A DNA stretch of 64,000 nt from Verrucomicrobiota bacterium (GTDB lineage Bacteria; Verrucomicrobiota; Verrucomicrobiia; Limisphaerales; SIBH01), in assembly GCA_038205745.1 (NCBI GenBank), contig JBBRBM010000003.1, positions 3,879-67,878 on the forward strand. The letters run 5' to 3'. The position numbers were made by a program, and so were the translations under genes. The notes beneath the pieces were generated by a model, which did not search any database, was not told the origin of the DNA, and saw only the letters and a list, made by a program, of their open reading frames with translations. Within the stretch, counting starts at the first letter, position 1. The number at the start of each line of letters is the position of its first letter. Shown here one piece after another: positions 1,629 to 61,997 of this stretch.

Positions 1629-1643
1629 ATGTGCCTGGTTGCA

Positions 1644-1710: not shown

Positions 1711-1721
1711 CACCTGACGCC

Positions 1722-6344: not shown

Positions 6345-6393
6345 AAGTCAGCGCGGCTGGACAAACAGGTGGCGGTCACCCTTAATTTCGCGC

Positions 6394-7173: not shown

Positions 7174-7177
7174 CAGT

Positions 7178-9312: not shown

Positions 9313-9404
9313 CTCAACGCGGCAGCCGTCGTGAACACGAGAAGTTTTTCTAATGCACGCGGGCGAACTGCGTCCAATTGACCAAACTTGATCACCGTCT
9401 CCTT

Positions 9405-13786: not shown

Positions 13787-16700
13787 CTACGGCGTGCGCC
13801 TGAGCCGGAAGAACGACGCGCCACCCGAGATCGGCACGGTGGCCGAGCTGGTGCCGCTGCTGGTGGTGACGGTGGCCGACGACGTTGACCATGAACCGGA
13901 CGAGATCGACGCCCTCGTTTCGAGAACGATGTTGGTCTGCGTCTGCCAGCTCAACACGACATTGTTGCCCGCGCGCGCTGCGTAGAGTGTGGGCACGCCG
14001 GAAGCGGGCGGCGCATTCGGATCAAATACCGTGGTCTGAATCGACGCCACATTATTGACGGGGTTCAGGTCCTGTTCACCCGCGCCTGCGGTTGCGTTGA
14101 ATGTAATCTGGGCCGGGCTTCCCGGAGCCCGCACGGTGATCGTGCCGATGGTGCCCGCACCAGCCGGCAGGCTCCCGAAATTCAGCGTAACAGTGCTGCC
14201 GGATCGGGTGCCTGCGGGAGTCAGGTTCACGAACGTTGCATCTGGCGCCAATGTATTCGTCACGAACACGGCATTTGCGTTCGCAGGTCCGACGTTCGTC
14301 ACCGCGATGGTGTAAGTCAGCAGTCCATTTGTCGCCACAGGGTCCGGACTGTCCGTCACCTTGAGTGAAATATCCGCGCCGGGGATCACCGGTTCGCCAG
14401 ACTGGATATTGAGGCTCCAACCACCCGCGATGCTTCCACCGAATACTGGAGCGTCGTCATAGATGTAGAGTGACCACACACCATTGGGGTTCATGTTGTT
14501 GAACGTGGACAGACTCGTGCCGTAAGGCGGCAGCGGTCCGGGTGGCGCAAACGGATCGTTCGTCACCGCGTAGTTGCCGCAACGATACGTTCCATTGCTG
14601 ATGACACCGAAATCCGGGATCGCAAACGCCGCCGCGTCATCGAACGTAATGGTGAGATTGTGCATCGCGTTCGCGGTGCCGGAGCCGCCGTTGCCGGCGT
14701 CTGACATCAACATCACGTTCCTGCCATCCGGCGCCACGAGCACGATGTCGAGGTCATCCGGATAATCATGCGAGACGTTGTACAACGTGACCGTCAACCG
14801 GGTTAGCGGGCCGCCGAATCCAGAAACCGTCAACGTGGACGGATACGGCGAGGCCACACCCGAGTCAGGAAGCGTGATGACGTCCGAGTTCGCAAACGGA
14901 ATCATCGCGCGTCCAATCGTGTAGCTGAACGTCACGTCTCCCAGGAATACACCCAGGTTGTTCGTGAGCAGCAACGTGACCGTGAGGCGCGTGCCGTTGC
15001 TGCCGGACGCGAGGAATGTAAACGGACGCGACACCGAGTCACCACCCGCCACGAGCTCGCCGTAGCCTCGCTGCTGGAGATTTGTCGCCGCCTGGGCATT
15101 CGTCGGCGATACACCGGTGCCATTCCCGTAAACCAGCGTCGCCGTGATCGTGTCGTTGATCGTCCCGTTGTTGCGCAGTGCCAACTGGAGCGTGACGATT
15201 TCGCCCGGCTCGATGATGCTGTTCGTCGTCAGGTTTTCGGCGACCAGTGCCGAGCCCGCGGCCACAATCACGCCTGCATCATTGTCGAAGATCCGCAGGA
15301 GCGCCGAGCCCGGGCTGCCGACGCGAGCACCGCCGCCTGCGTTGCTCAAGGCGAGCGTCAAACTTTCCAGGCCTTCCACGATACTGTCGTCGTTGATCGG
15401 GATGATGATTGGCTTCTGTGTCTCACCCTGGGAGAAGACCACCGTGCCCGATGAGCCGAAGTAATCCTGACCGTTGATCGCTGATCCGCCAGTCACGCTC
15501 CAGGCCACGCTGACGGTGCCGTTGGAGCCGCCGGAGCGCACGAGGTTGATGACCGCATTACCGTCGCCTTCCACCACGTTGTAAGTCGCCGAGGCGAACG
15601 CAATCGAGCCGGCATTATCCACAATATTGAGCGTGGCCGTGCCGGTCGTCAGGTCAATCGTCGCGCCGCCGGTCGGCAGGTCGAGGAACAGGCCCACAGT
15701 TTCAATGCCCTCCGTTACGCCGTCATCCGCAATCGGAATGAGCAAGGTCCGGGAGGTGGCGTCACCCGAACCCCAGCTTAACGTTGTGGTGATCGCCACG
15801 TAATCGACCCCCGCCGTCGCTGTTCCATTCTGCGTGCGGAAGCGCGCACTGACTGCATTGGACGAATTACCAGTGCGAATCACCGTGATCACCGCATTGG
15901 TCCCCTTCTCGTTGACGACATAGATCGGGCTCGAGAAACCAATCCCAGTGTCATCCTCAATGATATTGACGATGGCCGTCGGCTGGCCACCAAGGCCGGT
16001 GCCGGGGCTGGGATTCGCCAGGGTCAGATTGAAGAACTCGTCTCCTTCCACGATCGTGTCGTTCTGGAGCGTCACACCAAAGACGCGGGATGTCTCGCCC
16101 GCGGCGAACGCGAGCCGTCCTGTGATCGTGAAGTAATCGTTCGTGAATAACAGGGACGTCGCGGTTCCGTCCGACGTGGCGAAGTCCACCGACACAGCCG
16201 GATTCGTCGAGCCTGTGCGTATGACGGTGATCGTCACGTTCGGTGCGGATTCCAGGACGGAATAGACAGCCGAGCTGAAGCTGAACCCGATATCGTCGTC
16301 CACGATGATCAACTGCGCAGAAGGCAACGGTTGCAGCGTCACGCCGCTCGATGGATTCGACAGCGTCAAGTTCACTATCTCGTCCCCTTCCGGAATCGTG
16401 TCGTCATTGATGGAGACGAGGAACGTCTTGTTCGTTTCGCCCGCCGCGAAGTTGAGCACCAGCGAGGTATTGAAATAATCCTGGCCGGCCGTTGCCGTGC
16501 CCGGGCTCGTGTTCACGCCGACAGAGAACGCCACACTCGGATCACCGCGGCGGTCAACGCTGATCACGGCGCTCGTGAACGCCTCGGTCACGAAGAACTG
16601 CGGCTGCGAGAACGTCACGCTGATCTCGTCGTCGAGGATGTTGAGCATCGCCGTTTGATTGAGGATATCCGGGCCATTCGGGAAGCCACCGGCAGGCTGG

Positions 16701-28213: not shown

Positions 28214-28266
28214 ATAAGTTCGCAATCTGGTGTCCGGTTCAGTCGTCCGGCAGCGCTCGTTCGTTC

Positions 28267-34200: not shown

Positions 34201-36495
34201 CGCAAGATTCCCCTGCACTGCCAGCGAATAGACCGTGTTGTCGGCTCCGAAAGCCGGGGCAAAGGCCGTATCGAGATCACCGTCACCCAGCAACCGCGCG
34301 ATGCGGCTGCGCGGTTGGCCGTTGAAAGAGGTGAATTCGCCACCCACGTAAAAGCGCTGGCCCTCGCCATTCGCATCGACCGACGCCGTGAATTGCCAGA
34401 CCGTTCCCGGATCACCGCTCCCCTCATTGATGACGATCGAAACCACCGTCGCTCCGCCGCCGCCGAACGGAACGGAAACCGTGATCGGGCCTTGATACAG
34501 GGCGAAGTCACAGAGCGGATCGCCCAGGTAATTATTGGTCATGCCCGAATTGTAAATCAGAGTGGCACCGTAATAGATGTGCAGCGTGTCGGGCACACAC
34601 GCAAAATCGTAAGTGACCGTCACGATTCCCGACGCACCGCCCACCGTGATGTTGGTGCGAAACTCCGCAGGTCCAGCGCCGGAGTTGCCCGCACCGACGT
34701 TGATAATCGCCGTACTCCGCTCCATCGCCACTGCCCAAATCGGTGCGTCAGGACCGGTTCCAGGATTGAACGTCGTGTCGAGTGTTCCGTTCGGCAAAAG
34801 TCGCGCGATGTTGTTCACCGGCACGTCGTTGTAAGCCGTGAATTCACCGACGATGATCATCTTTCCGTCCGCCTGAAGCGCGATGTCCCGCACGATTCCG
34901 CGGACACCGCTGCCAGGAATAAAGCCCGGATCAAGCGAACCATCCTCATTCAACCGCGCGACACCGCGGCGGCTGATATTGTTGAATGAAGTGAACCCGC
35001 CACCGATCACGATCTTGCCATCGGACTGCTCCACCAAAACATCAATAAATCCGTCCGCGCCACTTCCCGGATCAAAGCTTGCATCCACTGAACCGTCAAC
35101 ATGCACACGTGCGATGCGATTGCGCACGATCGCGTTCACGCCCGTGAATTCGCCGGCGAGGAGAGTCTTGCCGTTGTTGCCGATGGCGCTGTTCGCCACC
35201 ACAGACACCGCATACACCTCGTTGTTCGCGCCCGGAGTGATGATTGGATTGTAATACCAGTCCACCGACCCGGCCGACATATCGTCCGAACGGATGACCA
35301 CCGGAATCTGGCGCGCTCCGCCAAACGACGGCGGATTCCCCGCAGTGCCCCCGCGAATGTTAATCAGCGAGAAGAGGTTGGTCTCATCCAGTTCCACGAG
35401 AATATCGTCCGTGATCGTGATCGTGAACGTCTGTTCGCTTCCCTGCGACCCGTTGCCCTGCCCATCGAGCCAAGTCAACGTGCGCTGATTCAGCACAAAA
35501 TCCAGCCCATGCCGAGACTCCAATTCCCCGGGACATGTGGCAGAATTAATGAAATTCGTAATGTCCACATCGATCCTGCCGCTGCTCCCGCACTCGCGAA
35601 AAACATGCACCGTCAGCGTCGTCGTATTCCCCTCGCGCACCAGCGGTTGCATCGGGTCGGCGTAAAAATCGATGCTGTTATTATCCACCGTCGCCCCGGT
35701 GATGCGGATGCGGCCCACGCCATTGTCGTTGTCGCGAATCACCACCGACGCCACACCGAAATTCGGAGCCACGGAGCCGCCAATTGGATTCGAAAGAACC
35801 ACCTGAAAAAAATCCAGGTTCGTCTCCACTGTGCAATCATCCACGATCGGAATGCTGATCGTCGCCGACAACTGACCGTTGGTGAACAAAATGGTGCCCG
35901 ACGTCGCGAGGTAGTCCGCGTTAAAGATGGCCGTGCCATCCACCGTGGAAAAATCCACCGACGCCGACCCATTCGTATCCCCCACCCGCAGCACCGTGAG
36001 CACGGCGTTCGTCACATCCTCATTCACCTGCAGGTTGGTGCTGGCAAAGCGGAAGAAGGTGTCATTGTCAAAAATCGTGACCAACGTGACCGCATTCGAG
36101 CCCAGGTTCGCCCCCACCGGACTGAATAGCAGCACACCGAACGTTTCACTCGGCTCCGTCAGCAAATCGTCGATGATCGGGACATTGATCAGCTTGAACG
36201 TTTCGCCGTCGGCGAAGTTGAGGACATCATTGGTGCCAATGTAATCCGCGCCCGACAGCGCCGAACCATCGAACGTCGAATACTGCACGGAAGCCGCGCC
36301 CGAGCCGGGAGTACGCGTGACGATGACACTGATATTGGTGCCCGCGACACCGCCCGCCTCGTAAGTGCTGGGGGCACCGGGCAGGAACTGGATGGTTTGC
36401 GCCCCACCCAATGCGGTGGTGAGCAGGAAAAGAAACAACCCACAAAGGCCGGCGAAACCGCGTTTCATCGCGGCCTTAGCTTGCAATTTTTGCAT
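28267..36495 (-). CDS. Giant secreted protein (2742 aa): ~12 Calx-beta modules, three delta-60 propeller arrays and shared C-terminal domain
   Basis: The signal peptide is MQKLQAKAAMKRGFAGLCGLFLFLLTTALGGAQT. The Calx-beta and delta-60 signatures are the same as in the neighbouring gene. The protein ends ...VPYRFYRVRRLVP. Confidence 0.9.
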   Translation of the reverse strand: MQKLQAKAAMKRGFAGLCGLFLFLLTTALGGAQTIQFLPGAPSTYEAGGVAGTNISVIVTRTPGSGAASVQYSTFDGSALSGADYIGTNDVLNFADGETFKLINVPIIDDLLTEPSETFGVLLFSPVGANLGSNAVTLVTIFDNDTFFRFASTNLQVNEDVTNAVLTVLRVGDTNGSASVDFSTVDGTAIFNADYLATSGTILFTNGQLSATISIPIVDDCTVETNLDFFQVVLSNPIGGSVAPNFGVASVVIRDNDNGVGRIRITGATVDNNSIDFYADPMQPLVREGNTTTLTVHVFRECGSSGRIDVDITNFINSATCPGELESRHGLDFVLNQRTLTWLDGQGNGSQGSEQTFTITITDDILVELDETNLFSLINIRGGTAGNPPSFGGARQIPVVIRSDDMSAGSVDWYYNPIITPGANNEVYAVSVVANSAIGNNGKTLLAGEFTGVNAIVRNRIARVHVDGSVDASFDPGSGADGFIDVLVEQSDGKIVIGGGFTSFNNISRRGVARLNEDGSLDPGFIPGSGVRGIVRDIALQADGKMIIVGEFTAYNDVPVNNIARLLPNGTLDTTFNPGTGPDAPIWAVAMERSTAIINVGAGNSGAGPAEFRTNITVGGASGIVTVTYDFACVPDTLHIYYGATLIYNSGMTNNYLGDPLCDFALYQGPITVSVPFGGGGATVVSIVINEGSGDPGTVWQFTASVDANGEGQRFYVGGEFTSFNGQPRSRIARLLGDGDLDTAFAPAFGADNTVYSLAVQGNLAILVGGSFQTFDGLDRAGLVRLLTNGTVDTTFSSGSGVLGAVFDIKLQPDQMPIIGGDFTLYNGTARTNIARLYTDGTLDTSFGDNHYLQAQSGPNGFVNSISIQTNGNIMAGGAFSLIGGGQDGIFGLLTNAVRPQFNFTRFIGGTNPGALNMPGNIEFVSAQYSVDENSLSGSVLLTVRRLHGEVGPITTSFYTVDGSGHAGTDFSGTSGTVIFGDCDTLTRIIQIPIFDNSFVEGNRTFTVILTNPVNGSLPSTQPALGAQTRATVTILDNDFNRGVLGFQQPVFNVDETGNATVTVVRTNGSVGQVTVQYATYALTATGGIDYTTTSGTLTFASGDTNKSFFVPIASDVSLESEEWFGVRLTNATGGAVLGLSNATVLIYDNDFGRGSVSFTNSELAVSESAGFATIPIRRTSGGLGYLTNDFIAYELPLGPGVARADIDFTPVTNRVVFPPGVLTQYVTVPIISDRFVEGNERIGLLLTNVSNGTLGFLRQSTLTIVDDDSYGSLGFSDVNYFISERGTNALITLTRVGGDAEDVSVDFATVAISATDGEDYVGTNMTVTFPDGVRTVVVALPILDDELLEENETVSLVLNNFQKATPGTFTNSLLTIIDNEALNAPAGSVDTTFDAHPNSFINALGLQSSGKLIVGGDFTSINSFGFNRIARLNVTGSTDPLFKVGQGANGQVQAILIQPDDKIIVGGRFTTYDVTNRARIARLNADGTIDSSFNPGAGADNPVFALALTPDQRVVLGGSFTTVNGVTRPNVAVLNTNGSVDFSFSTGAGLNGTVYAVAVQPDGKILIGGDFTMVNNTNRSRIARLHPNGSLDVTFNPPGGAAGGAVRAILLQPDGNIVVGGSFTNFNGAARNHLARLLPSGGLDPSFDAGSGADAAVLALALQGNGRILVAGDFHVFNGVSRNRLTRLAPDGSIDPSINFGTGANSFIAAVLLQPNEQIVIGGGFTEFNGVPRQYVARLIGGVNDGAGTFNFISGVFTVNENGTNAVITVSRDGGTAGIGTVNFSTFDGSGFAPGDYQATNGTLTFPPGETLQTFSVRVVNDHTVDGDVVVFLALDSPSAGAELGLTSDAVLVIRDDDCIIRFVTENYSVNEGVAAGHAIIAVERVGSTNTTVAVNFATVGGTATSPDDYTASSGLVVFSPGETLREFTVPVFEDTNVEAPETVLLQLSSPIVFSGGGSDAFLGLSDATLTIVDNDFLPGQFTFSAQTNVVGEADGFITITVLRTNGSSGIVSVRYSLGGGTAAAGVDYLAASGLLSFADGETAKSFSVVIINDQSVEGDETVLMTLSNPTGGASLLSTNPGTLLIIDDESGVQFESATYSAAEDDGSVRVTVIRSGNTNVVASVGFFTAPQTASAPADYIPTNGTLTFLAGVVRQLFDILIVSDTVTELPETFRVLLNNPSSNVQIGAPSNAVITIQDSARFVHFSATDYIVNEGDTNAVITIERSGLLTRGISVIFRTRDGSAVAGADYLYTSNIVKFAAGESNKTVLVPIFDDGLTEGPETVLLDLVFPTNAAVILPGTATLTIADNDAGPGGPDSTFDPGAGANKFVRAVALQQNGRILVGGAFTNFANVTNRNFLARLNTNGVFDTNFIVAGPNALVSAVAADTNGHIVIGGAFTNVNSNAFNRMARLLDSGASDPTLSQSLKFDAAVNALELLSDGRIVAGGGFSLPTRGVARLRVNGSTDLTFDVGSGTDAPVLAAKLQPDGMVLIGGGFTNVSGFPYPRLVRIAANGLIDTSLQPLTITNGNVLSIAVQADGKILIGGTFRFVNGFARGGIARLNSDGSLDLTFDPGTGPNGSVYTVNVLANGHVFIGGDFTSVNGFTRNRYALLQTGGAVDEEFDSSLGADNTVYSSVVQPDQKIIIGGDFVTVGGLTRRGVARINVGETLLRASAPVLSINSATVTVNSQPGRTYALEGSTNMVQWFSLSTNTATGLTLDLTDSPISGVPYRFYRVRRLVP
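28270..28470 (-). other. Shared C-terminal domain, copy 2
   Basis: The last 67 codons: ...TYALEGSTNMVQWFSLSTNTATGLTLDLTDSPISGVPYRFYRVRRLVP. Confidence 0.6.
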
Positions 36496-36601
36496 ACAAA
36501 AAGCGGTTCAACACACACGACACCCGCAGGCGGACACACACGCGCCATGGCTGTTTAGGAAGTCGAGTTATTCTCACACTTAACAATTCACTTCAAGTTG
36601 T

Positions 36602-39600
36602 TTACGGCTTCTTCAGGCGGAAGAACTGCCGCTGTCCCGTAACCGGCACGGTCTGGGTGTAAACGCCATTCACCAACTGCGGCGTTCCCGGCAACGGCGA
36701 CCACGGCCCATTCGCCTCCGGTCCGCTCACCACGAAGTAACCCACGGCACTCGCCGGCCACGAAAAAACGATGTCGTTCCCCGATCGCGTCGCGAACAGC
36801 GTGACGCTCGACCCGGCAATGAAGTTCATCCGCCAACCGCCTGCCAACACGCCGGCGTCCGAACCCTGATCGTCCATGATGAACAACTTCCAGTCACCGT
36901 TCGGATCGGTGCCGTTGAAAATCGAAAGGCTCGTGCCGTAAGGTCCGGCGGGTGCGGGCGGGAAGAAAGTATCACCAGCGCCAATATTCGTCGGTTTGTA
37001 GGAGCCGGAAACGATCTGCGCGTTGGGCGGCAGCCCGCTGGCTGCGGATTCCGTGAACAACAACGTCACGCCGTCCAGATCGAAGCCCCCGCCCGCATCC
37101 GACATCAACATCACGTTCTGTCCTGACGGGCCGACAACCAGAATATCCAGATCCGCCGGATACGTGTGGCGCAAGTCACTGAGTGTGACCGTCAGATCAG
37201 TCAACGCATTCGGCGCGTTGGTGATGCGAATGATGGAGGGATACGTGGCCGCAGTTCCGGCATCGAGCAGCGTCACAGGCGACGGATTCGCGTACGTTCC
37301 CGCTGAGACAGCCGCAGCGATGTTCGTCGCCACGTTGTTGTCCAGGTTGAAATCAATCTGGTCTGTGGACACCACGGCACCATTTGTCAGGCTGCCTTCC
37401 TGCGTCGGGATGACGTTGATCAGTATCGTGGCAAATCCTCCGGCGAAGAGCGTGCCGATGTCCGCCGTCAACACTCCATTGCTCAGCACGATCGTGCCGC
37501 GGCTGGTTGTATAGCTGAGCAGGTTGGCGTTCACCGACGGCGGCGTATCGAGCAGCACCACATTGGTGGCAACGTCAGGCCCGGCATTCGTGACCACAAT
37601 TGTGTAACTGAAGATGGAGCCGACGCCGGCAAACGGACTGGGCGTCGCGATCGACAAGCGCAGGTCGGCCCCCGCCAGCGCGGTGCCACCAATGCCGCCA
37701 AAGCCGAAGATGAATGTGTTCGGCGAGCCGTTGGTTTTGCCCTCAAAGGTTTCCGGTTCGCCAAACGAACTCTTGCCAAACGAATACGCCTCGGCGCCAA
37801 CACGCGCCACCGCCGACAACGCATCGCGCTCGGTGCCAGCCGCGCCGTAATAGGTCACGAACGATGTGCTCTGGCCGGGATTCAACAACCCGAAGTTGAA
37901 ATCAAACAACGCGCCGTGGTCCGCTGGACCGCTGTCCACGAACGTGTTCGTCGCCAGAATGAAGAAGCCCGGTATCAACGGGTCAGCGCTCGCGAAACCG
38001 TTGTCGCTGGTGAAGACAAGGTTCGTCGAGTCGCCCTTGATCACAGTGGAATATTCGCGGAACGGCGTCGGCTCGATGTCCCAATCCATCACGCGGCGAT
38101 ACAGAACTTCGGTGACGTTGGTCGAAATGTTTTCGATCGTGACATCCACCTGATAGAGATTCCGCGTCACTGGCGAGGGATGATAGAAATGCGTCACGCG
38201 GAACGTCGGCCGCGGCGTGGTATTCGTGCCGCCGAAGCGAGTGCCGCCGATCACGCGCACCACCGACCTCGCATTCACTCCATCCGAGGTGAAGCTTTCG
38301 ACCACGAGTCCGAAAGGTCCGCCGTCCGATGACTCGTTCGCGCCTCCGGAAACGCGGGAGATCGCGTCCGCCGCGCCCCAGCCTTCGCACAAGCAACCCG
38401 GCGCCGTCGATTCAGCGCCCGTGGGCAGATAGCGCAATCCGACCGCCGTGGTGCCGCTCAACGAAGGCTTGCCGCCCGGCACATTCAGGTGTCCCGCGCG
38501 ATGCACGCCGAGTTGAACAATTCCGTTGTCGATGATGCCGCTGACCGAGCTGCCTCCGGCATCCACGCTCACGGTCGTGGTTTCAATGCTCGTATTGTTC
38601 GCTGGTGATGGCTCGGGTTCGACTGCCACCGCCGTCGCGAGATTGGTGAAAGTGCCGCCCACCGTGGTGCGGAACACGATCAACGCCTGCGCGAATGCAC
38701 CATTCGTAATCGTGCCGAACTCGAACACAAGCGTGCCGCCCGTGGCGTAATTCGTTCCCTGCGAACCCGAGAACGAAACCAGCGTGAACTGCGGCGGGAG
38801 CGAGTCGAACAACGTGACGTTGTGCGCCACGCTCGGGCCGTCGTTGAACACCGTGATTGTGTAAGTCACGTTCACGTTGACGCCCGCCGGATCACGCGAC
38901 TCGCTCGTCGTCACCGACAGGTCCGACGCCGCCGTCACCACCGTCGTCTGCACTGCCGTGTTCTCGGGCGTCAGGTCAGGCTCGTTGGCGGAAGCCGTGA
39001 TGATGTTCGTCATCACACTTTCAAAACGGCCCTGCACGATCACATTGCCGTTCACTGAAGAATTCGCCGGCATCGTGCCGACGGTGAACACCAGTCGATC
39101 GCCCAGATTGATGAATGAGCCGCCGCTGATGCTGGCCGAAACGAACGTTCCATTCAGTGGCAGGTAATTCGTCACGAGCACGCCCGTCGCCACCAGTGGA
39201 CCGCGATTCGTCACCACGAAATGATACGTCACCGGCTGGCCGGCGAACGCCGGGTCGGGCGCATCCGTCAACGTCACGCTGAGATCGGCAGTTGTTCCCG
39301 GCGCGATCGTCGTCACGACGCTCACGGTGTTGTTCGCAATGATGGAATCCGGTTCCTGCGAAGAGACTGTGGCCGCATTCGTCAGCGTGCCGCCCACGCC
39401 CGCGACCGTTTTGAAATCAACCGTGGCAACACTGTTCGAGGTCAGGAAATCCAGCGCGCACAGCACGTAACCGTTGCTCACGACGCAACTGCCTTGCGAA
39501 GGAAACGCGCCCACGATGGTGACTCCCGCAGGAAGCGCGTTGCTGAACAGAACGTTGGCCGCCGCATTGGGTCCGGCATTGCTGACGATGAAGGAATAGA

Positions 39601-42600
39601 GCAATACGTCGCCCGCCGCCGCACCGGAGGCAGGTGACACGCTGCCGGTCACCGAGAGGTCGGCGACTTTCGCCGGATCGACCGTCGAGAAGATCAAACG
39701 CCAGCCGTTGCTGATCACGCCGGCGTCATTGCCACGGTCATCCAGCACATACAACGACCATGTGCCGTTCACACTCTTGCCGCCGAAGATCGAGAGCAGA
39801 TTTCCATACGGCCCGACTGGTGCAGGGCTGAAGAAATTGTCCGCCGGACCAAAATCCGTCGGGCGATTCGTGCTCGTGGTCAGGACCGCGTTGCTCGAAA
39901 TGCCGGGCGCCGTGTCGTCGAACGTCAACGTGAGGTTCGTCACCGGGAAGCTGCCGCCCACATCCGACATCAACAGCACTTTTTCACCGGCGGGGCCGAC
40001 GAGCAACGCATCGATGTCTGCGGGGAACGAGTGGCGCAAGCCCACCAACTGCACTTCCACATGGCTCAACAGGCCGGTGAGATTGTTCACCACGATCGTC
40101 GAGGGATACGGTGAGGCCGGCTGCGCGTCGAAGATGTTAATCATCGCCGTGTTCGAACGAATGATGGTGCCGACCGTGAAGTCGTTGTCCACGATGCTGA
40201 GCGGCGCAACGCCCGGCGTGCCGATCGCGCAGTCCACGGGATTGATCAGGCTCAATGAGAGCGTTTCGTTGGGCTCACCAGTCGGGTCGTCGATGATCGG
40301 GACGAACACTTCCGCGTTCGTCTGGCCCGGCGCAAAAGCGACGTTCGTGCTCACGGAAATGTAATCACTCCCGGCCAGCGCGGTGAGGTCCGCCGTGACG
40401 AGCGTGGCGGAAATCGTGCCGCTCAACCCGCCCACACGCTGCAACGTGATGACCGCGTTGGTGACGCCTTCGCTCACGACGTAATTGGTGCGCGCAAACT
40501 GAATGCCTTTCTCGTCGTCTTGAATGGTCACGAGCGCATTGGTGTTGCCGCTCAAGTCAACCAACGCCGGGGCGCCGCTCAGGAACAAACCGAAATTTTC
40601 GTCTCCCTCAACGGCCGTGTCGTTGAGGATCGTGATGTTGACGATCGCGGAGGTTTCGCCGGCCGCGAACGAGATCGTGTTGGTCACGCCAACGTAATCC
40701 AACGCGTTCGTGGCGGTAATGTCGTAAGTGCTGAGGCTCAGCGAGAATGCCGTGTTCGTGTTGCCACTGCGCAACACCGTGACCGCCAGGGAACCGGCGT
40801 TCTCCGGCACCAGGAAATTCACGGACGCAAACTCGACGGCTGTTGTCACCGCTTTCTCATCGCCATGGATGCGCGCCACGTAATTCCTCGCGATGCCGTT
40901 CACTTCCGTGAAATCGCCGCCGATGATCACCGCGCTGTCCGGCTGCACCAGCGCCGTGCGCACGGAGGCATTGGCGCCGTTGCCCGTCACGAAACCGAAG
41001 TCGATGCCGCCGGTCTTTTTCAATCGCGCAAACCGATTCGCCAGCGCGCCGTTGTAAGTGGTGAAGTCGCCGGCAATCACGATCTTGCTGTTCGGTCCCA
41101 CGGCAATGGCTTGGATCGCTCCACTCGCGCCGCTGCCGATGCCGAAATTGGCATCGACCGCACCCGATGAAGTCAGGCGCACGAGGGCATTTCTTCCGTT
41201 GCCATCGAAGTTCGAGAATTGTCCGCCGGCAAGAATGAGTCCGTCCGGCTGCACCGCGATTGCATTCACCGGGCCGTTGAAGCCTGTGCCCGTGGCGAAG
41301 CTGAGGTCGAGGCCGCCGCTGGTGTTCAAACGAGCGAGCGATGCGCGGTTGGTTCCATTGACGGTGGCAAAAGCGCCGCCAGCCAGGATTCTGCCGTCGG
41401 ACTGAATAGCCAGCGCATTCACATTGCCGCTGAAGCTGGGATTGAAACCGGCGTCGAGCGAGCCGTTGACGTTAAGGCGCGCGATGTGGCTGCGCGGCGT
41501 GCCGCCGACAGACGTAAAGTCGCCCGCGATAATCACCTGCCCGTTGGTCTGCAATGCGATGGCGCGCACGATGTCATTCACACTGTTGCTGAAGACGAGA
41601 TCGAGTTTGCCGTCCGCAGCGAGGCGCGCGATGCGGGTGCGGTTCGTGTTGTTAACCTGTGTGAAATCGCCGCCGAGATAGACCTTGCCGTCCGGCGCGG
41701 AGGCGAGTGAGTACACGGTGTTATTCGCACCTGCTCCCGGATTGAAGCCCGAATCGAAAATGCCGTTGGCTTGCAGCCGCGCCACGCGAATGAAGGTGAA
41801 TCCGTCCACCTGCGTGAATTCACCCGCGATGACGATCTTGTTGTCATACTGGAGGGCCGCGGCGCGCACGGGAGCGTTCGGACCGGAGACGAATTCATAG
41901 TCCACATTGCCCGCAGTCTCGTTGTCGATAATGGTCACCGTGGTCGTAATGTTCGCCCCCAGCAGCACAGAATTCGGGGCGGCTACGGCGGAAGTTTCCG
42001 GATTGCTCAGCGTGACGATGAAGTCTTCGTTCCCCTCTCCGTCCGCATCGTCCACGATGGGTAGGGTGACCAGCTTTTCGGATTCTCCGGCCACAAACGT
42101 GAGTTGGCCCGTGCCGTTGGTATCGAGTTCGAAATGGTCGCCAGTGAACTGGACGGTGAAGGCGCCACCCAGATAATCCAGACCGTCAATCGCAGTGCCA
42201 TCGGCGGTGGTGTAGGTGGCCGACACCGGATTCACCGTGCCGCCCGTGCGGCGAACGATGATGGTGACGCTGTTGGAATACTCGCGCACAAAGTTGTTGG
42301 TGGACTCGAACTCGATCCGGCACTCGTCATCCACGATCACAAGCGATGCATTGCTGATGGCACCGAGGGACGCGCCGCCAAGCGGGCTGGTCAGGCGCAG
42401 CGAAACCGTCTCGTCGCCTTCGAAGAGATTGTCGTCGAAGATGTCGATGGACACGAAAGCGTTCGTTTGGCCTGGCGCAAAATTAAGGACCAGATTCGTC
42501 GCCACAAAGTCGTTGGAACCTGCGCTTCCGTTCGTGGCGGTGAAGGTTACGGATTGCGCATTGGTAATTACACCGGAGCGGACGATCTCGACCTGGCCCG

Positions 42601-45600
42601 TGAGGCTGTTCTCATTGCCGCGGAAGGTGAGCTGACGAAACGCGAGGTCGGTGTCGTCGTTTACGATAGTCAATGTTGCGGTCTTTTGCCCGCCCAAGGG
42701 AATGCCGCCGCTCGGATTGAACAGTGCCATGGCGACGGTTTCGTCGGGCTCGACCACCGCGTCGTCAATCAAGGGAACATCGAACGTCTTCAACGTTTCG
42801 CCAGGCGCGAAGGTGATCGTTCCGTTGGTGAGCACGTAATCAGAGCCGGCAATGGCCGTTCTGTTGCTGACCACGAAGCTGACGCTGACGGTCAGATTGG
42901 TGTTGCCGCTGCGCACGACTGGGATGGAGGCGACACCTGCGTTTTCCGGCACGTCATAGTTCTCCAGCAGGAACTGGATGGCACCGTCGTCAGAAACCAG
43001 CACCACGGTGGCGCTGCTGGGTGAGCCCACCGCATAACCGGGGCGCGGCAGCAGGGAGACGGTCATGAACTCAGCCATCTCCTCCGTAGGATCATCGCGC
43101 GGAATGAGCGTGAGCACGGCGCTGTTGGTTCCCGCCGGGATGGTGATGCTGCCGTTGGTTGAAAGCGTGAAGTCATTGCCGCTGGCGGCGGTGCCATTGA
43201 CCGCGAAAGCAATGGTGAGCGGTGCGTTGGTCGTGCCGCTGCGCGTCACGGTGAAACGCACCGGCTGCGCTCCCAGCTCGTAAGCAATATCGGACGATGG
43301 CGTGATCGTGACGGTCGATGTGCCAACGTCGAGAATGGTCAAGGTGTGGCTCAGGGACGGTCCCAGGAAAGCGTTTGTCGGGACACGCGTGATGACGGTG
43401 CTCATGATTGGAACCCCGTTGTTCGTAGCAAAGGAAATGTTAGTCACGTAACCGCCCGGGTTCATCAACGTCAGCGTAAGGGTGCGGTTCGCGGTGGAGA
43501 CACCGTCGTTCAGAATCGGCACTTGAATGACCTCAATGCTGCCTTCGGCATTCGAGATGATCGGAGCCGGATCGGGATCCTTGACATGGATGAAATGAAG
43601 CACGCCGGTGGCGCCGCGTTCGAAGGAGCCCGGCACATAATTCACGCCAGGGATGGCTGTGCCGCCCAGGATGCGGTAATCGACTTCGACCGGACGATTC
43701 GTGGCGGGATTGGCCGTCACACGGACGTAAATCAACGCGGTGCCGGCATCCTCGCGGATGGTGGACGTGCCCAGGAGGAATCCAACTGCAGGGAGCGCGG
43801 TATCACCTTCATCATCGTTCACGCGGATCGAGCGCGAGGTGGTGGAGCCAAGCAGGTAGTTGGTTCTGGCAAGGAGTTGAATGACGATGTTTTCCGCACC
43901 CAGCACCCGGCCCCGTTCGCGCGCGTTGTCGTTGATGCCGCTCAACGTGATATTGGCGCTGGCTGCGCCCACTGGAATGATCACATTCGTTCCGATGGCC
44001 GTGTAATCGATGCCTTCCCACGCCGTTCCACCCACTTCAAAGACCACATTGAGGCTGTTCGTCGTGGGACCAGTGCGCGTGACGGTAAATGAAGTACTGC
44101 CACCGCTCTCTCCTATGTCGGCGCCGCCGCTGATGGTGACGGTCGGCAATGTGCCGTCGATAAGGGTGACAATCGCGGCGTTGTCGCTGTAGATATTGTA
44201 AGTGGTTGAGTCAGAAATCTGCACAATCACCGTGCGGGGAAGCGGCGTCGATGCCGAAGCAATGGCGCTGATGGACACGTCGATGCTGATCTGCCCGGCC
44301 GGGATGGTGACCGAACCGGCGAGCGTTGTGTAATCGACTCCCGGAAGCGCCGTGCCGGTGACAAGGTAGTTGACGGTGAGATCGTCGCTCAAGGTACCGG
44401 CGCGCGAGAAGGTGACTCGCCCATTGCCGCCTCCGCGAACGGCGCTCGAATCCGCAGCGAAGATGTTCACGAGCGGCAAATCGTCATCGACCACTAGGAA
44501 GTTCGCCGAGCCGCCCGAGATGGTATAGCGATCCTGCGGGTCAGGGAGAATCGTCACAGTGGCTTGCTCGTTGCCTTCCACGAAAAGATCATTCACGGCC
44601 GTGGCGTATACGATGATGAAATATTCTCCCGCAGGAATCGTGACTGAACCGGACAGCCCGGTGTAGTCGAGATTGTTACTCGCAATGCCGCTCAGGCCAT
44701 AGGCAATCGTCAGGTCGTTCGTGATGGGCGCTCCCGAGCGGAAAAAGAAAATCGCCGCCGTATCGCTGCTGGACTCCATGACGTCGGAATCCAAAACTGC
44801 GACACCCACCAGAGGAACGGCGGGCGGGTCGTCGTCAATGATTTGAATGCTGCTTTCAGCCAAACCGAGGACGTAAGTCGGATCGGTCTGGAACCAGGTC
44901 AGCGCCTGACTTGGACCCGACGGACGGAGTTCCCAGCCAGGAATTGCCAGGTTGTTCGTGCGCGTGACGAAAAGAGTGTTGGTCGAGATCACGCTGCCAT
45001 TTGTGGTCAGCACATTCGTCAACACCGTGAACACGCGCAGATCGTTCGTCGCCAGCAGCAGCCGGATCCCCACGCTGTCGTTTCCAGTTCCGACCCCATT
45101 GTCCGTGGGCGTGTAGCGGAAATCGACTGACGAGAATCCAGCCGGGATGATGAAGCGTCGTTGATCGAAGATAATTGTCGCGAAATCTGAAAAGAAATTT
45201 CCCTCATTGAGCTGTCCGATGGGTTCGAAGCGCACCACGAGATCTTCGCTGAGGTCACCATCGCGCGTGACGACGAAATGGCCTTCTTCATCCGACGAGA
45301 CACCATCCTCGCCGGGTTCGTGTGCATCGATGGTCTGTGCAATCCTGACGCGCGTGATCGGCGTGGCGAGAAAATCGAAATCCGTCGTGTTGCCGTCCGT
45401 CACGACCAGAGGATCGGTGAAATTCTGCGGCACGGTGCGGTAGCCGTAAAGGAACCCACGCTCCGTATAGGAGCCGGGAGGAACGTTGCCAATGACGTAG
45501 TAACCGTCGCTGTCCGTGAAGCCATAGCGATAGGTGCCGAGATCGATGGGGTTGTCTCCATCGTCGGGTCGGGCTCGGCTGTTGTGGACGCGCACACCCT

Positions 45601-47887
45601 GCACACCGTTTCCGAACGAATCCAGAATGCGCCCGCTGACCGTGTAGGTGGTCGGGGTTCCAACCGTCACGACCACGTGGCGGCTCGCCGTGCCGCCTTT
45701 CATGTCCGAAACCTCGCAGCGCGCCACATACACACCACTGTTCGGGTAAGTCCTGCTCTGAGTCGGCCCATTGGTGCCGAACGAGTGATCACCAAATTCC
45801 CAGTAATACGCAAGCTGGTCGCCGTCGCTGTCCTGCGCGATGGAACTGAACGTCACCGTGCCGCCGTTCGTGATGGTCAGAACGTCAGCCGAAATCGAAA
45901 GCGTCGGAACATGGTTGTCCAAGAAATTGCCGATCTGCAGGACCACATCGATCCATTTGTTGGTTGGGTCCGGGCTGTCACTGATCGCGATCGGGGTGAT
46001 GTGCAAATTGGCCTGCGAATCATGAAACGTGCGGCCCACCACCAGCGCGGCATCCTGCCGGCCATAGGCGGAGTCCGGAGTGGTATCGATCAACACCGTG
46101 CTCGTGTTCAACATGATCTCGAGTCCAGAGGCGAACCACGGATTATTCGCGACTCCCTGCCGGTAGCTGAGCCAATACTCGGTGTTTTGCCTCTTCAGCG
46201 TTACGAGAGCGTAGGTGCGGTCGTTCTGGATCCGTGGCACATCAAACGCATAGATGCGATTCGTAGTACTTTTGAGAGCCGTGGCGATCGCCCCGCGCGG
46301 CAACCAATTCAGGGAGTACTTGAACATGGTATTAAATTGTCCACCCCCTCCCATGGTGTCGTAGGGATGACCGTATTCGTAGACCGCCTCGGCGGTTGGG
46401 TCGCCGAGGAATTTGGGCGCGCCGCCACGACCCACCGGTGCGTTAATATCGTTGTGACCAATCAGAATACTGTCAGGATCGGTAGGGAAAGGCGTGTTAT
46501 TTGTCGGGCCGGGATTGCGGCCTTCCGGCTGGTAGAAATTTGCATGCGGCAGACCGAAGTTGTGGCCGAGTTCGTGCGTCAAGGCGCCGGGAGAATTATT
46601 GAGGATGCCGCTCGATATGCCGCCAAAGAGAAATTGCGGCATCGATGTGGTCAGAACGTAATACATGTAGTAGTCGCTGGAGAAGTAACCCAGCGCAGCG
46701 GCACCAGCGAGTGCGTCTCCAATCAGGTTGCCGTCGTCCCCGTAATACACTTTGCTCTGCGGCAGGCGAATCACAGGCGTCACGGTCGTCTCCCACCAAA
46801 CGCTGTTATACGATCCGGTGTTGAAGAATCGATTATTCGCTGCCGCAGTCGCGTACGCGGCGTCTTCTGACTGCGGGATCTGGGGCTGGTCCGCATACGT
46901 AACCCGGATGTAGAGCAACTTCTTGATGCCTTGCGTGCGGCTGTTGGCCGCAGGCGGCAATTGGTCCGGGGGATTTCCCGCGACGGCGCCGCCGCCGGCC
47001 CCGCCCGCTTCCCAGATCAATCCATTGGCCGCAGTGAGCTGTGCGTTGAATTCATTCGCCTCCTTGGTTCCGCAATAGGTGTAGTATTGCTCGCCAAATT
47101 GCAGCACCGAGGCGCTCTCTGCAGCCACCGGCCGGCTGCATGCCTGGCATGTCGCATTCAGCTTCCCTGCCGCGGCGAGGTCGGCCATCTCCACTTTGTC
47201 CGTAACTCCACGCGCCGCATCTTCAGGAATCGCGGCAACATTTCCCGCCGTGATACCACTGAGAAACATGCTGTCGTGAGGTGGTTGGTGCAGACGCTTG
47301 CCCCAAGTGTAGGCGCGATACGTCTTTTTCTTTTTGTCCTGCCGCACCTCAATTTCGAGTCCATCCACGCGGCAATCGGCTGGATGCTGCTCGGCGGCCA
47401 GATAATTGATGTGCGGGTGCATACTGCCCCGCGTGCTCAACGGTTGCTCGATCTGCGAGAGAATGCTTTCGGGGAGTTGCTTGCGAACACTGTACGGAAG
47501 CGCCTGGGCAATCGCCTGCTCGGGATTCTCACGAATCAACTTGATCATCTCCTCGCGGCGCGCGTTCGCGAGCGGTTCGGCTTTTGCCAGCAACGCGGGG
47601 CGGAGTGCCACGTCAGCCTTGATGAACTGTTGCGCCCAATCATCAAAGGCGGAAATCGCTGATGCGGTCGCCACTTTTTGTGCGGGCTGCGAACTGGCCG
47701 TGGGAATGGCGGCCGGTTTCGTCGCGCTGGAAACGCCCGGCGTTACAGCCGGCACGGATGCGGGCGCAGCGTCAGGCGCCGCGGCGACCGGTGCTTGCGG
47801 TCGGGGCGGCGAACTGGTCTGCCAGAAAACCAGCGTCGACAGGAGTAACGCTGCGGCTCCTGCCGCAAACCAACGAGACGTCTTCAT
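36602..47887 (-). CDS. Giant secreted protein (3761 aa): metzincin domain, PKD, CarboxypepD_reg-like, Calx-beta modules, delta-60 propeller, P domain, 3x DUF11, unknown Cys-containing domain, DUF11, second P domain and shared C-terminal domain
   Basis: The N-terminal anchor/signal WFAAGAAALLLSTLVFW is followed by a P/A-rich linker. Other elements are HELGHNFGLPH, a PKD signature, Calx-beta signatures, delta-60 repeats, two P domains and DUF11 modules at approx. 38570-39688 and 37300-37680. The protein ends ...QRQFFRLKKP. Confidence 0.9.
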   Translation of the reverse strand: MKTSRWFAAGAAALLLSTLVFWQTSSPPRPQAPVAAAPDAAPASVPAVTPGVSSATKPAAIPTASSQPAQKVATASAISAFDDWAQQFIKADVALRPALLAKAEPLANARREEMIKLIRENPEQAIAQALPYSVRKQLPESILSQIEQPLSTRGSMHPHINYLAAEQHPADCRVDGLEIEVRQDKKKKTYRAYTWGKRLHQPPHDSMFLSGITAGNVAAIPEDAARGVTDKVEMADLAAAGKLNATCQACSRPVAAESASVLQFGEQYYTYCGTKEANEFNAQLTAANGLIWEAGGAGGGAVAGNPPDQLPPAANSRTQGIKKLLYIRVTYADQPQIPQSEDAAYATAAANNRFFNTGSYNSVWWETTVTPVIRLPQSKVYYGDDGNLIGDALAGAAALGYFSSDYYMYYVLTTSMPQFLFGGISSGILNNSPGALTHELGHNFGLPHANFYQPEGRNPGPTNNTPFPTDPDSILIGHNDINAPVGRGGAPKFLGDPTAEAVYEYGHPYDTMGGGGQFNTMFKYSLNWLPRGAIATALKSTTNRIYAFDVPRIQNDRTYALVTLKRQNTEYWLSYRQGVANNPWFASGLEIMLNTSTVLIDTTPDSAYGRQDAALVVGRTFHDSQANLHITPIAISDSPDPTNKWIDVVLQIGNFLDNHVPTLSISADVLTITNGGTVTFSSIAQDSDGDQLAYYWEFGDHSFGTNGPTQSRTYPNSGVYVARCEVSDMKGGTASRHVVVTVGTPTTYTVSGRILDSFGNGVQGVRVHNSRARPDDGDNPIDLGTYRYGFTDSDGYYVIGNVPPGSYTERGFLYGYRTVPQNFTDPLVVTDGNTTDFDFLATPITRVRIAQTIDAHEPGEDGVSSDEEGHFVVTRDGDLSEDLVVRFEPIGQLNEGNFFSDFATIIFDQRRFIIPAGFSSVDFRYTPTDNGVGTGNDSVGIRLLLATNDLRVFTVLTNVLTTNGSVISTNTLFVTRTNNLAIPGWELRPSGPSQALTWFQTDPTYVLGLAESSIQIIDDDPPAVPLVGVAVLDSDVMESSSDTAAIFFFRSGAPITNDLTIAYGLSGIASNNLDYTGLSGSVTIPAGEYFIIVYATAVNDLFVEGNEQATVTILPDPQDRYTISGGSANFLVVDDDLPLVNIFAADSSAVRGGGNGRVTFSRAGTLSDDLTVNYLVTGTALPGVDYTTLAGSVTIPAGQISIDVSISAIASASTPLPRTVIVQISDSTTYNIYSDNAAIVTLIDGTLPTVTISGGADIGESGGSTSFTVTRTGPTTNSLNVVFEVGGTAWEGIDYTAIGTNVIIPVGAASANITLSGINDNARERGRVLGAENIVIQLLARTNYLLGSTTSRSIRVNDDEGDTALPAVGFLLGTSTIREDAGTALIYVRVTANPATNRPVEVDYRILGGTAIPGVNYVPGSFERGATGVLHFIHVKDPDPAPIISNAEGSIEVIQVPILNDGVSTANRTLTLTLMNPGGYVTNISFATNNGVPIMSTVITRVPTNAFLGPSLSHTLTILDVGTSTVTITPSSDIAYELGAQPVRFTVTRSGTTNAPLTIAFAVNGTAASGNDFTLSTNGSITIPAGTNSAVLTLIPRDDPTEEMAEFMTVSLLPRPGYAVGSPSSATVVLVSDDGAIQFLLENYDVPENAGVASIPVVRSGNTNLTVSVSFVVSNRTAIAGSDYVLTNGTITFAPGETLKTFDVPLIDDAVVEPDETVAMALFNPSGGIPLGGQKTATLTIVNDDTDLAFRQLTFRGNENSLTGQVEIVRSGVITNAQSVTFTATNGSAGSNDFVATNLVLNFAPGQTNAFVSIDIFDDNLFEGDETVSLRLTSPLGGASLGAISNASLVIVDDECRIEFESTNNFVREYSNSVTIIVRRTGGTVNPVSATYTTADGTAIDGLDYLGGAFTVQFTGDHFELDTNGTGQLTFVAGESEKLVTLPIVDDADGEGNEDFIVTLSNPETSAVAAPNSVLLGANITTTVTIIDNETAGNVDYEFVSGPNAPVRAAALQYDNKIVIAGEFTQVDGFTFIRVARLQANGIFDSGFNPGAGANNTVYSLASAPDGKVYLGGDFTQVNNTNRTRIARLAADGKLDLVFSNSVNDIVRAIALQTNGQVIIAGDFTSVGGTPRSHIARLNVNGSLDAGFNPSFSGNVNALAIQSDGRILAGGAFATVNGTNRASLARLNTSGGLDLSFATGTGFNGPVNAIAVQPDGLILAGGQFSNFDGNGRNALVRLTSSGAVDANFGIGSGASGAIQAIAVGPNSKIVIAGDFTTYNGALANRFARLKKTGGIDFGFVTGNGANASVRTALVQPDSAVIIGGDFTEVNGIARNYVARIHGDEKAVTTAVEFASVNFLVPENAGSLAVTVLRSGNTNTAFSLSLSTYDITATNALDYVGVTNTISFAAGETSAIVNITILNDTAVEGDENFGLFLSGAPALVDLSGNTNALVTIQDDEKGIQFARTNYVVSEGVTNAVITLQRVGGLSGTISATLVTADLTALAGSDYISVSTNVAFAPGQTNAEVFVPIIDDPTGEPNETLSLSLINPVDCAIGTPGVAPLSIVDNDFTVGTIIRSNTAMINIFDAQPASPYPSTIVVNNLTGLLSHVEVQLVGLRHSFPADIDALLVGPAGEKVLLMSDVGGSFPVTNLTLTFDDTAPGISSNAVLTTSTNRPTDFGPADNFFSPAPVGPYGNLLSIFGGKSVNGTWSLYVLDDRGNDAGVISNGWRLIFSTVDPAKVADLSVTGSVSPASGAAAGDVLLYSFIVSNAGPNAAANVLFSNALPAGVTIVGAFPSQGSCVVSNGYVLCALDFLTSNSVATVDFKTVAGVGGTLTNAATVSSQEPDSIIANNTVSVVTTIAPGTTADLSVTLTDAPDPAFAGQPVTYHFVVTNRGPLVATGVLVTNYLPLNGTFVSASISGGSFINLGDRLVFTVGTMPANSSVNGNVIVQGRFESVMTNIITASANEPDLTPENTAVQTTVVTAASDLSVTTSESRDPAGVNVNVTYTITVFNDGPSVAHNVTLFDSLPPQFTLVSFSGSQGTNYATGGTLVFEFGTITNGAFAQALIVFRTTVGGTFTNLATAVAVEPEPSPANNTSIETTTVSVDAGGSSVSGIIDNGIVQLGVHRAGHLNVPGGKPSLSGTTAVGLRYLPTGAESTAPGCLCEGWGAADAISRVSGGANESSDGGPFGLVVESFTSDGVNARSVVRVIGGTRFGGTNTTPRPTFRVTHFYHPSPVTRNLYQVDVTIENISTNVTEVLYRRVMDWDIEPTPFREYSTVIKGDSTNLVFTSDNGFASADPLIPGFFILATNTFVDSGPADHGALFDFNFGLLNPGQSTSFVTYYGAAGTERDALSAVARVGAEAYSFGKSSFGEPETFEGKTNGSPNTFIFGFGGIGGTALAGADLRLSIATPSPFAGVGSIFSYTIVVTNAGPDVATNVVLLDTPPSVNANLLSYTTSRGTIVLSNGVLTADIGTLFAGGFATILINVIPTQEGSLTNGAVVSTDQIDFNLDNNVATNIAAAVSAGTYANPSPVTLLDAGTAATYPSIIRITNAPNALTDLTVTLSDLRHTYPADLDILVVGPSGQNVMLMSDAGGGFDLDGVTLLFTESAASGLPPNAQIVSGSYKPTNIGAGDTFFPPAPAGPYGTSLSIFNGTDPNGDWKLFIMDDQGSDAGVLAGGWRMNFIAGSSVTLFATRSGNDIVFSWPASAVGYFVVSGPEANGPWSPLPGTPQLVNGVYTQTVPVTGQRQFFRLKKP
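36605..36820 (-). other. Shared C-terminal domain, copy 3
   Basis: The last 72 codons: ...SGNDIVFSWPASAVGYFVVSGPEANGPWSPLPG...TGQRQFFRLKKP. Confidence 0.7.
36821..37296 (-). other. P domain, second copy in the 3761-aa protein
   Basis: TYPSIIRITNAPNALTDLTVTLSDLRHTYPADLDILVVGPSGQNVMLMSDAGG...DPNGDWKLFIMDDQGSDAGVLAGGWRMNF. GGWRMNF was read at 36821-36841. Confidence 0.7.
39689..40150 (-). other. P domain, first copy in the 3761-aa protein
   Basis: SPYPSTIVVNNLTGLLSHVEVQLVGLRHSFPADIDALLVGPAGEKVLLMSDVGG...NGTWSLYVLDDRGNDAGVISNGWRLIF. DAGVISNGW was read at 39701-39727. Confidence 0.7.
45353..45646 (-). other. Carboxypeptidase-regulatory-like (CarboxypepD_reg) beta-sandwich
   Basis: YTVSGRILDSFGNGVQGVRVHN...GFTDSDGYYVIGNVPPGSYT. 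Confidence 0.55.
45659..45910 (-). other. PKD domain
   Basis: GGTVTFSSIAQDSDGDQLAYYWEFGDHSFGTNGPTQSRTYPNSGVYVARCEVSDMKGGTASRHVVVTV. Confidence 0.75.
45923..46930 (-). other. Metzincin-type zinc metalloprotease domain (HExxHxxGxxH), M11 gametolysin-like or reprolysin-like
   Basis: GALTHELGHNFGLPHA, with HELGH read at 46562-46576. The downstream EYGHPYDTMGGGGQFNTMFKYSLNWLP matches the EYGDP.D.MG...K..LGWL block I recall from bacterial M11-like proteins. Confidence 0.65.
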
Positions 47888-55229: not shown

Positions 55230-55282
55230 CCGAAGAACGGTTGCGCGACTTGCCCTGCGGCGATGGCACAACCTCGTTCAGG

Positions 55283-58150: not shown

Positions 58151-58190
58151 CGTGTGCGTAACTCAGAATATGGGAAGACAAGGCAAAGCA

Positions 58191-59896: not shown

Positions 59897-59897
59897 C

Positions 59898-61781: not shown

Positions 61782-61997
61782 CGCACAATATGCGACCACA
61801 TCGCTGCGCACTGCGCCAGACGATGCGGAGTCCCGCTGCGTACCCTATTCGCAACAATACGGTCAAACAGAAAACTTATTCCGGTGATACTCGCGCAATT
61901 TATGGCGCAAGTTTTCTGGCAAGACGCGCGATGCGTTTTGAAGTTACACGGCGGAGCGGGAAAACAAAAATTTCCGCCGGTCAGGAAACGACAGCAT

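Follow-up and report, generated by a model that had tools for sequence, protein, structure and literature searches.

Three consecutive giant genes, here named A, B and C, were found on the minus strand of a 64,000-nucleotide (nt) stretch of DNA from a Verrucomicrobiota bacterium (assembly GCA_038205745.1, contig JBBRBM010000003.1, positions 3,879 to 67,878 of the forward strand). The whole stretch is referred to as the window and all coordinates are positions in it; its G+C content was 59%. Transcription runs from A through B to C; 106 nt separate A from B, and 53 nt separate B from C:

36602..47887, minus strand: gene A, ATG start, 3761 amino acids (aa)
28267..36495, minus strand: gene B, ATG start, 2742 aa
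13787..28213, minus strand: gene C, ATG start, 4808 aa, or 4827 aa if the GTG at 28270 is used

The three open reading frames total 33,942 nt, corresponding to 53% of the window. These lengths, gaps and the shared direction had been given in a first-pass annotation of the DNA, and all figures were confirmed. The chance of a stop-free frame of such length was estimated from the base composition at 1e-40 to 1e-70. Frameshifts or stops, which the annotation had named as the mark of pseudogenes, were looked for in the present sequence. No internal stops were found in A, B or C, and domain matches tiled nearly the full length of the proteins from end to end. A, B and C are therefore real, intact genes without frameshifts.

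Hydrophobic N-terminal signal sequences were read directly from the translations of A, B and C, as annotated earlier. Canonical cleavage sites were present in B (GGA-Q) and in C (AKA-Q), and the N-terminus of A resembled a signal anchor followed by a Pro/Ala-rich linker. The upstream GTG of the C reading frame overlaps the stop codon of B (GTGA; window 28213-28270). The ATG at 28213 was preferred as the start of C because the signal peptide is then canonical. In the NCBI annotation, B (P0158, 2733 aa) begins nine codons after the first ATG. The G+C content falls to 0.54 at 26001-28000, compared to about 0.60 elsewhere; this region covers the 5' end of C with the signal peptide, the N-domain and the first Calx modules.

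Domain annotation with Pfam and NCBIfam agreed with the proposed build of alternating Calx-beta and delta-60 modules. The order of the parts was as follows:

Gene A, first half: signal/anchor, Pro/Ala linker, conserved N-domain, metzincin-like domain, PKD, CarboxypepD_reg, eight Calx-beta, seven delta-60
Gene A, rest: two Calx-beta, P-domain, three CLIPPER, about 310 aa without assignment, CLIPPER, P-domain, C-terminal domain (CTD)
Gene B: signal peptide, three Calx, delta-60 (three, a 131-aa gap, four), four Calx, seven delta-60, five Calx, seven delta-60, CTD
Gene C, first half: signal peptide, N-domain of about 140 aa, three to four Calx, seven delta-60, five Calx, seven delta-60
Gene C, rest: four Calx, seven delta-60 (with a 74-aa insert), about 150 aa, eight delta-60, eight Calx, P-domain, CLIPPER, CTD

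Calx-beta (PF03160) scored 973, 668 and 347 bits in C, B and A, respectively, and DUF5122 (PF17164), the delta-60 family, scored 829, 623 and 201 bits, with a cut-off of 27 in both cases. The NCBIfam delta-60 model TIGR02608 matched at 127.5 (cut-off 76.5). Calx-beta stretches found by Pfam numbered 16 in C, 11 in B and 6 in A, and hidden Markov models (HMMs) trained on the window gave 20, 12 and 10 modules, about 42 in total. The earlier counts by eye (about 19, 12 and a dozen or more) were thus near the mark for C and B and slightly too high for A. Delta-60 stretches found by Pfam numbered 25, 19 and 7, and repeats found by the window-trained HMMs 28, 21 and 7, a total of 56. The repeats were arranged in eight blocks (four in C, three in B and one in A), mostly of seven repeats. 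This fits the propeller-sized blocks described before, with a repeat period of about 51 aa and not the 55 aa first estimated. Two of the blocks are of particular use here:

40856..41884, minus strand: the single block of seven delta-60 repeats in A, aa 2002-2344, delimited by HMM
31225..32322, minus strand: the delta-60 block of B that was modelled, aa 1392-1757, predicted by AlphaFold2 as a seven-bladed beta-propeller

The block of B was the one block modelled, from an alignment of the seven paralogous delta-60 blocks. The model consisted of seven repeating blade units, with a predicted local distance difference test score (pLDDT) of 90.3 and a predicted TM-score (pTM) of 0.89. Foldseek searches of the model against the PDB returned exclusively beta-propellers, with TM-scores of 0.5-0.64. 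The model supports the suggestion, already made from the sequence, that each delta-60 block folds into its own propeller. In C, a 74-aa low-complexity insertion rich in T, N, V and I splits the third delta-60 propeller (20381-20602, minus strand, aa 2538-2611). The insertion is not present in the six other delta-60 blocks of the same alignment.

The acidic Calx motif DDxxxExxE, searched for with a regular expression, was kept in 22 of the 40 strong modules. On this count, about half of the Calx-beta modules could plausibly bind Ca2+.

The N-terminal part of A differs from B and C by a metzincin-like domain, in which a zinc motif was located:

46541..46576, minus strand: zinc motif HELGHNFGLPHA of A, aa 438-449, of the metzincin type HEXXHXXGXXH

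Within HELGHNFGLPHA, the sequence HELGHNFGLPH (aa 438-448) was invariant in all six aligned sequences, namely A and five homologues. A conserved D-x-M-G at aa 510-513 of the same alignment is a candidate Met-turn. All weak Pfam and PDB matches of the A head landed on metzincin zinc sites, and a sequence search of the PDB with the head gave only PKD and marginal metzincin-site matches. Two homologous sequences scored above peptidase family cut-offs, P0005 for Reprolysin_4 (26.0, cut-off 22) and the giant of an Opitutia metagenome-assembled genome (MAG; L040) for Reprolysin_5 (40.7, cut-off 27). It is likely that A carries a zinc-protease head. Several homologues of B (P0168-P0172, P0210, P0217 and P0251) were observed to combine the same Calx/delta-60 body with a trypsin (PF00089) domain. 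Different protease types would therefore have been fused to this scaffold in different lineages.

The tails of A and C contain further modules. P-domains number two in A and one in C, CLIPPER (DUF11) domains four in A and one in C, and the CLIPPER copies adjoin the P-domains. CLIPPER is a CnaA-like, isopeptide-bonded stalk domain of fibrillar adhesins (bioRxiv 10.1101/2025.04.25.650565). A search of the CLIPPER region against PDB sequences gave no match. The C-terminal domain of about 70 aa is fibronectin type III (FN3)-like and is common to A, B, C and the neighbouring gene U1121:

36605..36817, minus strand: CTD of A, FN3-like, ending in FFRLKKP
28270-28491, minus strand: CTD of B, FN3-like
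13790-14005, minus strand: CTD of C, FN3-like
48000-48224, minus strand: CTD of U1121, FN3-like; the protein ends in RVYRVRVDAVNP

The CTD closes with [FY][FY]R[LV][RK] a few residues ahead of the stop. Its likeness to fibronectin type III is faint, and no model for it was found in Pfam or NCBIfam. A word-indexed search for it yielded five fragments only; an exhaustive search with a profile returned 19,725 cluster representatives at E <=1e-3. Two or more tandem copies were present in 145 of the 150 top matches, with arrays of up to 20 copies. The best copy was C-terminal in 63 of the 150, showing a terminal bias that is not exclusive. A role of the CTD as a private sorting tag was rejected because the domain is so widespread and most of the top matches carry it in tandem. 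Judged by these matches, the CTD is a very common, uncatalogued FN3-like module. The metzincin head, the cassette of P-domain, CLIPPER and CTD, the shared C-terminal domain and the three accessory genes described below were absent from the first-pass annotation.

At least 875 homologues of B were found at E <=1e-20, and one of them, P0158, is 100% identical to B. Named homologues are called "uncharacterized delta-60 repeat protein" or "Calx-beta domain-containing protein" and come from Verrucomicrobiota MAGs. The relatives fall into size classes, B-like of about 2.4-2.7k aa and C-like of about 4.1-4.8k aa, often paired on one contig. Assembly GCA_031414955.1 contains an A-B-C triple in the same order, with proteins of 3733, 2650 and 4768 aa. 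The triple of the window is present at L056. Other delta-60/Calx-beta giants of the Verrucomicrobiota (P0162, P0163, P0166, P0170 and P0178; 38-59% identity to B) share the alternating architecture, the tandem position on one contig and the DUF11 and P-domain tails. No difference of kind separates them from the window proteins, apart from a trypsin head in some relatives where A has a metzincin head. No paper joining delta-60 repeats or Calx-beta with giant proteins of Verrucomicrobia was found in the literature. Because the relatives share architecture and order, A, B and C are best assigned as further members of an already catalogued, experimentally unstudied family.

Within the window, identity is 40% over 1822 aa between B and C, and 33-35% between A and either of them. 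Orthologues are closer, with 51-59% identity for B and 54% for A. From these identities, the triplication of A, B and C is older than the divergence of the lineages compared.

Upstream of A, the following genes are found:

47997..51236, minus strand: U1121, secreted protein of 1079 aa without a family match, with a CTD; conserved upstream partner of the giants
51248..52753, minus strand: U501, secreted protein of about 500 aa from a well-conserved, unmodelled family, 37-64% identity across loci
52750..54240, minus strand: U550, secreted protein of about 496 aa, internally repetitive in pattern, without a Pfam match
54336..55271, minus strand: stand-alone 5'-3' exonuclease, between the secretin and U550
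55283..61811, minus strand: cluster resembling Amuc_1101, Amuc_1100, the Amuc_1099 position and Amuc_1098, by best NCBIfam matches

Signal peptides were present on U550, U501, U1121, A, B and C. From PilM to C, every gene points the same way and no intergenic gap exceeds 109 nt; the stop of U550 overlaps the start of U501 by 4 nt. U501 was always found between U550 and U1121 and is marked by the motifs REGFRWNVP and YACDKSYIDYFG. A 12-sequence profile of U501 had no Pfam or PDB relative, PDB sequence searches returned nothing for U1121, and no Pfam family was consistent among the homologues of U550, U501 and U1121. A promoter and terminator scan of 47.7-55.5 kb gave no enrichment over shuffled sequences; one promoter-like site between the exonuclease gene and U550 was not significant.

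The Amuc-like cluster encodes a PilM-like protein of 637 aa, proteins of 303 and 265 aa, and a PilQ-like protein of 955 aa with TPR and secretin domains. The NCBIfam equivalog cut-offs were missed (375.8 against 750, 53.6 against 180 and 497.1 against 650), and the cluster is therefore a distant homologue of Amuc_1098-1101. The generic PilM subfamily (157 against 133) and the Pfam Secretin family were passed. The giants had been described as lying directly downstream of a secretin operon. In fact, four genes (exonuclease, U550, U501 and U1121; about 7.3 kb) separate the secretin from A. The shared direction and the link as such stand, and the neighbourhood is notable because the synteny is conserved.

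This synteny was seen in a metagenome scan seeded with U501. The order PilM, U303, U265, secretin, exonuclease, U550, U501, U1121 and A-like giant recurred on at least eight contigs (L062-L065, L071, L076, L082 and L091) and in part on L075 and L078. The A-like giants of these contigs consist of a metzincin head, Calx and delta-60 modules, and U501 is only 37-48% identical to the window copy. In GCA_046048995.1, U550, U501 and U1121 are followed by a short protein matching the A tail only, and then by B-like and C-like genes. In the Opitutia MAG L040 and the marine single-cell genome L049, a giant follows the PilM/secretin cluster directly. These giants have the same N-domain and HELGHNFGLAHA zinc motif as A, and downstream domains that differ altogether from those of A (C-type lectin, LamG, CBM5/12, Ig-like and cadherin).

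A, B and C are probably fibrillar adhesin-like exported proteins. Fibrillar adhesins are recognised by a signal peptide and a stalk of tandem Ig-like repeats, and both were found here. We propose that the three are ancient paralogues that would form Sec-exported, bead-on-a-string fibres of this Verrucomicrobial bacterium. The runs of Ig-like Calx-beta modules would be spacer rods, probably stiffened by Ca2+, and each block of seven delta-60 repeats would fold into a beta-propeller acting as a binding node. The P-domain, CLIPPER and FN3-like cassette in the tails of A and C would be of the adhesin-stalk type, and A would add a metzincin-type zinc-peptidase-like head at its N-terminus. Together with U550, U501 and U1121, the giants form a conserved co-directional module, which most likely builds cell-surface or released fibres for attachment to external material and, in the case of A, possibly for proteolysis. 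Sequence features are the basis on which we infer Ca2+ binding, a location at the surface, a function in adhesion, proteolytic activity and the path across the outer membrane.

Several observations weigh against this assignment. The N-terminus of A may be an uncleaved anchor, which would tether A to the inner membrane. The acidic motif is retained in only about half of the Calx modules. Searches of the whole proteins with Pfam and of the terminal segments with NCBIfam found no LPXTG, OmpA-like, PEP-CTERM, type IX secretion system (T9SS) CTD, RTX/type I secretion system (T1SS) or other anchor or sorting domain. A itself falls just under every peptidase family cut-off (M66, 20.2 against 20.6; Reprolysin_3, 18.8 against 22.4), and the AlphaFold2 model of its N-terminal 586 aa, built from a six-sequence alignment, reached a pLDDT of only 38.

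Modular repeat proteins are a classic source of misassembly, and the reading frames could on that ground be artefacts of collapsed or expanded repeats, or decaying pseudogenes. The DNA had been described as highly repetitive with scope for recombination between modules, which was not borne out. Tandem Repeats Finder detected no arrays (0), and the longest exact repeat was 27 nt, compared to 15 nt in shuffled sequence. The self-comparison suggested earlier for detecting recent module exchange, run as self-blastn, gave 25 weak off-diagonal matches with at most 72% identity over at least 100 bp, pointing to anciently diverged modules. With modules so anciently diverged and no tandem repeats in the DNA, a collapse during assembly is very improbable. 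Independent assemblies contain orthologues that agree in length and domain order (3733, 2650 and 4768 aa); these and the absence of internal stops speak against artefact and decay alike, and this explanation is effectively refuted. The first interpretation of the genes, an adhesin- or S-layer-like coat or an extracellular matrix, held in one part. An adhesin-like surface role is the most reasonable one, and the CLIPPER/DUF11 stalk domains strengthen it; nothing specific to an S-layer or matrix was seen. Three tandem paralogues of very large proteins of the Ca-binding type would suit an S-layer-like coat or matrix covering the cell, and eukaryotic Calx-beta giants such as the sponge aggregation factor do build extracellular assemblies. 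However, Pfam and NCBIfam scans found no SLH domain, other S-layer domain or self-assembly motif, and rods with separate propellers and an enzyme-like head suit fibres better than a two-dimensional lattice. A coat or matrix is accordingly regarded as distinctly improbable.

A different proposal is that the PilM/secretin machinery of the Amuc_1098-1101 type next door exports the giants as cargo or displays them, acting as a type II secretion (T2S)-like conduit in the outer membrane or as a pilus-associated display system. This adds a mechanism to the fibrillar adhesin assignment and does not exclude it. It draws on the unbroken run of co-directional, closely spaced genes from PilM to C, on the order from PilM to A-like giant kept on eight contigs despite the low identity of U501, and on the secretin followed by a giant with the A-type N-domain and zinc motif in the distant L040 and L049. 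Giant genes of Omnitrophota are also generally preceded by T2S or type IV pilus-like loci (bioRxiv 10.1101/2023.11.21.568195). The functional link is credible because the linkage recurs. Of the 28 A-head loci for which 9 kb or more of upstream sequence was available, 2 have a secretin next to the giant, and the chance expectation per locus is, as a rough estimate, well under 1%. Against the link, the other 26 have no secretin nearby. The order may be inherited synteny in one clade, because the array includes, at its centre, the housekeeping gene for the 5'-3' exonuclease. No gene for a GspE/PilB ATPase, a GspF/PilC platform protein or a pseudopilin was found from PilM to coaE, nor any PilB/GspE, PilC/GspF or pilin gene between the Amuc-like cluster and the giants. 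Amuc_1098 itself is PilQ, annotated and localised as a type IV pilus secretin (PMC4960237). Export or display by the secretin complex is therefore possible and tentative at best. It is unlikely that U550-U501-U1121-A-B-C is a dedicated, undescribed Verrucomicrobial surface-fibre system exported or displayed via the Amuc_1098-1101-type complex. If it were, the Akkermansia pilus-like cluster would ancestrally be a secretion or display machine for protease-headed giants, and U501 and the FN3-like CTD would be new assembly or recognition elements.

The fibrillar adhesin assignment can be compared with known giant proteins. RTX/T1SS adhesins of the LapA, SiiE and MpIBP type are giant adhesion proteins with Ca2+-rigidified rods of Ig-like repeats. 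The window proteins differ by their N-terminal Sec signals and lack of RTX repeats; no RTX matches and no T1SS (ABC/MFP) genes were found in the window. In eukaryotic Calx-beta giants (ADGRV1/VLGR1, sponge aggregation factor), chains of Calx-beta form Ca2+-dependent extracellular filaments. The likeness is one of a common domain and not of orthology, and these proteins are without delta-60 propellers or a protease head. The T9SS Por_Secre_tail C-terminal domain (TIGR04183/PF18962) had no match in the C-terminal segments of the giants, and the CTD family of the window occurs in internal tandem arrays too. Fibrillar adhesins with CLIPPER/DUF11, such as Acinetobacter silvestris B9T28_05395, share with the window proteins the signal peptide, the Ig-like stalk with CLIPPER and distinct terminal domains (bioRxiv 10.1101/2025.04.25.650565). 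The stalk in the window is, in contrast, mostly Calx-beta broken by propellers, with no OmpA-like, LPXTG or known anchor. The Omnitrophota giants belong, like the window, to the PVC superphylum; both are exported multi-domain proteins downstream of a conserved locus that contains a secretin, and adhesion and degradation have been proposed for both. The Omnitrophota proteins exceed 30,000 aa and have other domains, Calx not being mentioned, and their loci carry gspD, gspE and gspF (bioRxiv 10.1101/2023.11.21.568195), whereas the window has PilM-like and secretin components only.

Few uncharacterised genes of soil and freshwater Verrucomicrobiota are as large or as common as those of the Calx-beta/delta-60 giants. 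The window presents a complete, uninterrupted module with a metzincin-like head, a seven-bladed propeller unit and three unmodelled accessory families, and its recurrent PilM/secretin link involves a cluster that has been studied medically in its Akkermansia form, Amuc_1098-1101. Should the link be functional, it would parallel the Omnitrophota giants near T2S-like loci and suggest a shared PVC-wide strategy. If not, the window is a well-annotated instance of a catalogued protein family.

Some minor observations were made on the accessory genes and the flanks. Distant U501 paralogues (L089, L083/84) occur in other contexts, adjoining CTD-bearing proteins. U550 has about seven blade-like repeat copies (VVW/VVF, then G..F.VN), suggesting an unmodelled propeller. 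Its orthologues on L058, L070, L071, L075, L082 and L091 end with a CTD, and U550 of the window does not. U1121, an N/S/T/G-rich protein of beta-helix-like appearance, contains a lysine-rich insert in its middle, PPKKKKKRKTPP (49215-49250, minus strand). The exonuclease resembles the N-terminal domain of DNA polymerase I and is found in the same place on 10 related contigs from metagenomes, an odd position for a housekeeping gene. A UvrA fragment lies directly upstream of the Amuc-like cluster (55283-63959, minus strand). The left flank (117-12653) encodes a DUF1559/N-terminal-methylation prepilin-like protein, a 1278-aa FtsK/SpoIIIE-family ATPase, an FkbM methyltransferase, two GT4 glycosyltransferases, a thioredoxin-PDZ protein, a GH62 arabinofuranosidase-like protein and a weak DUF1570 match. 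The set is typical of the PVC superphylum.

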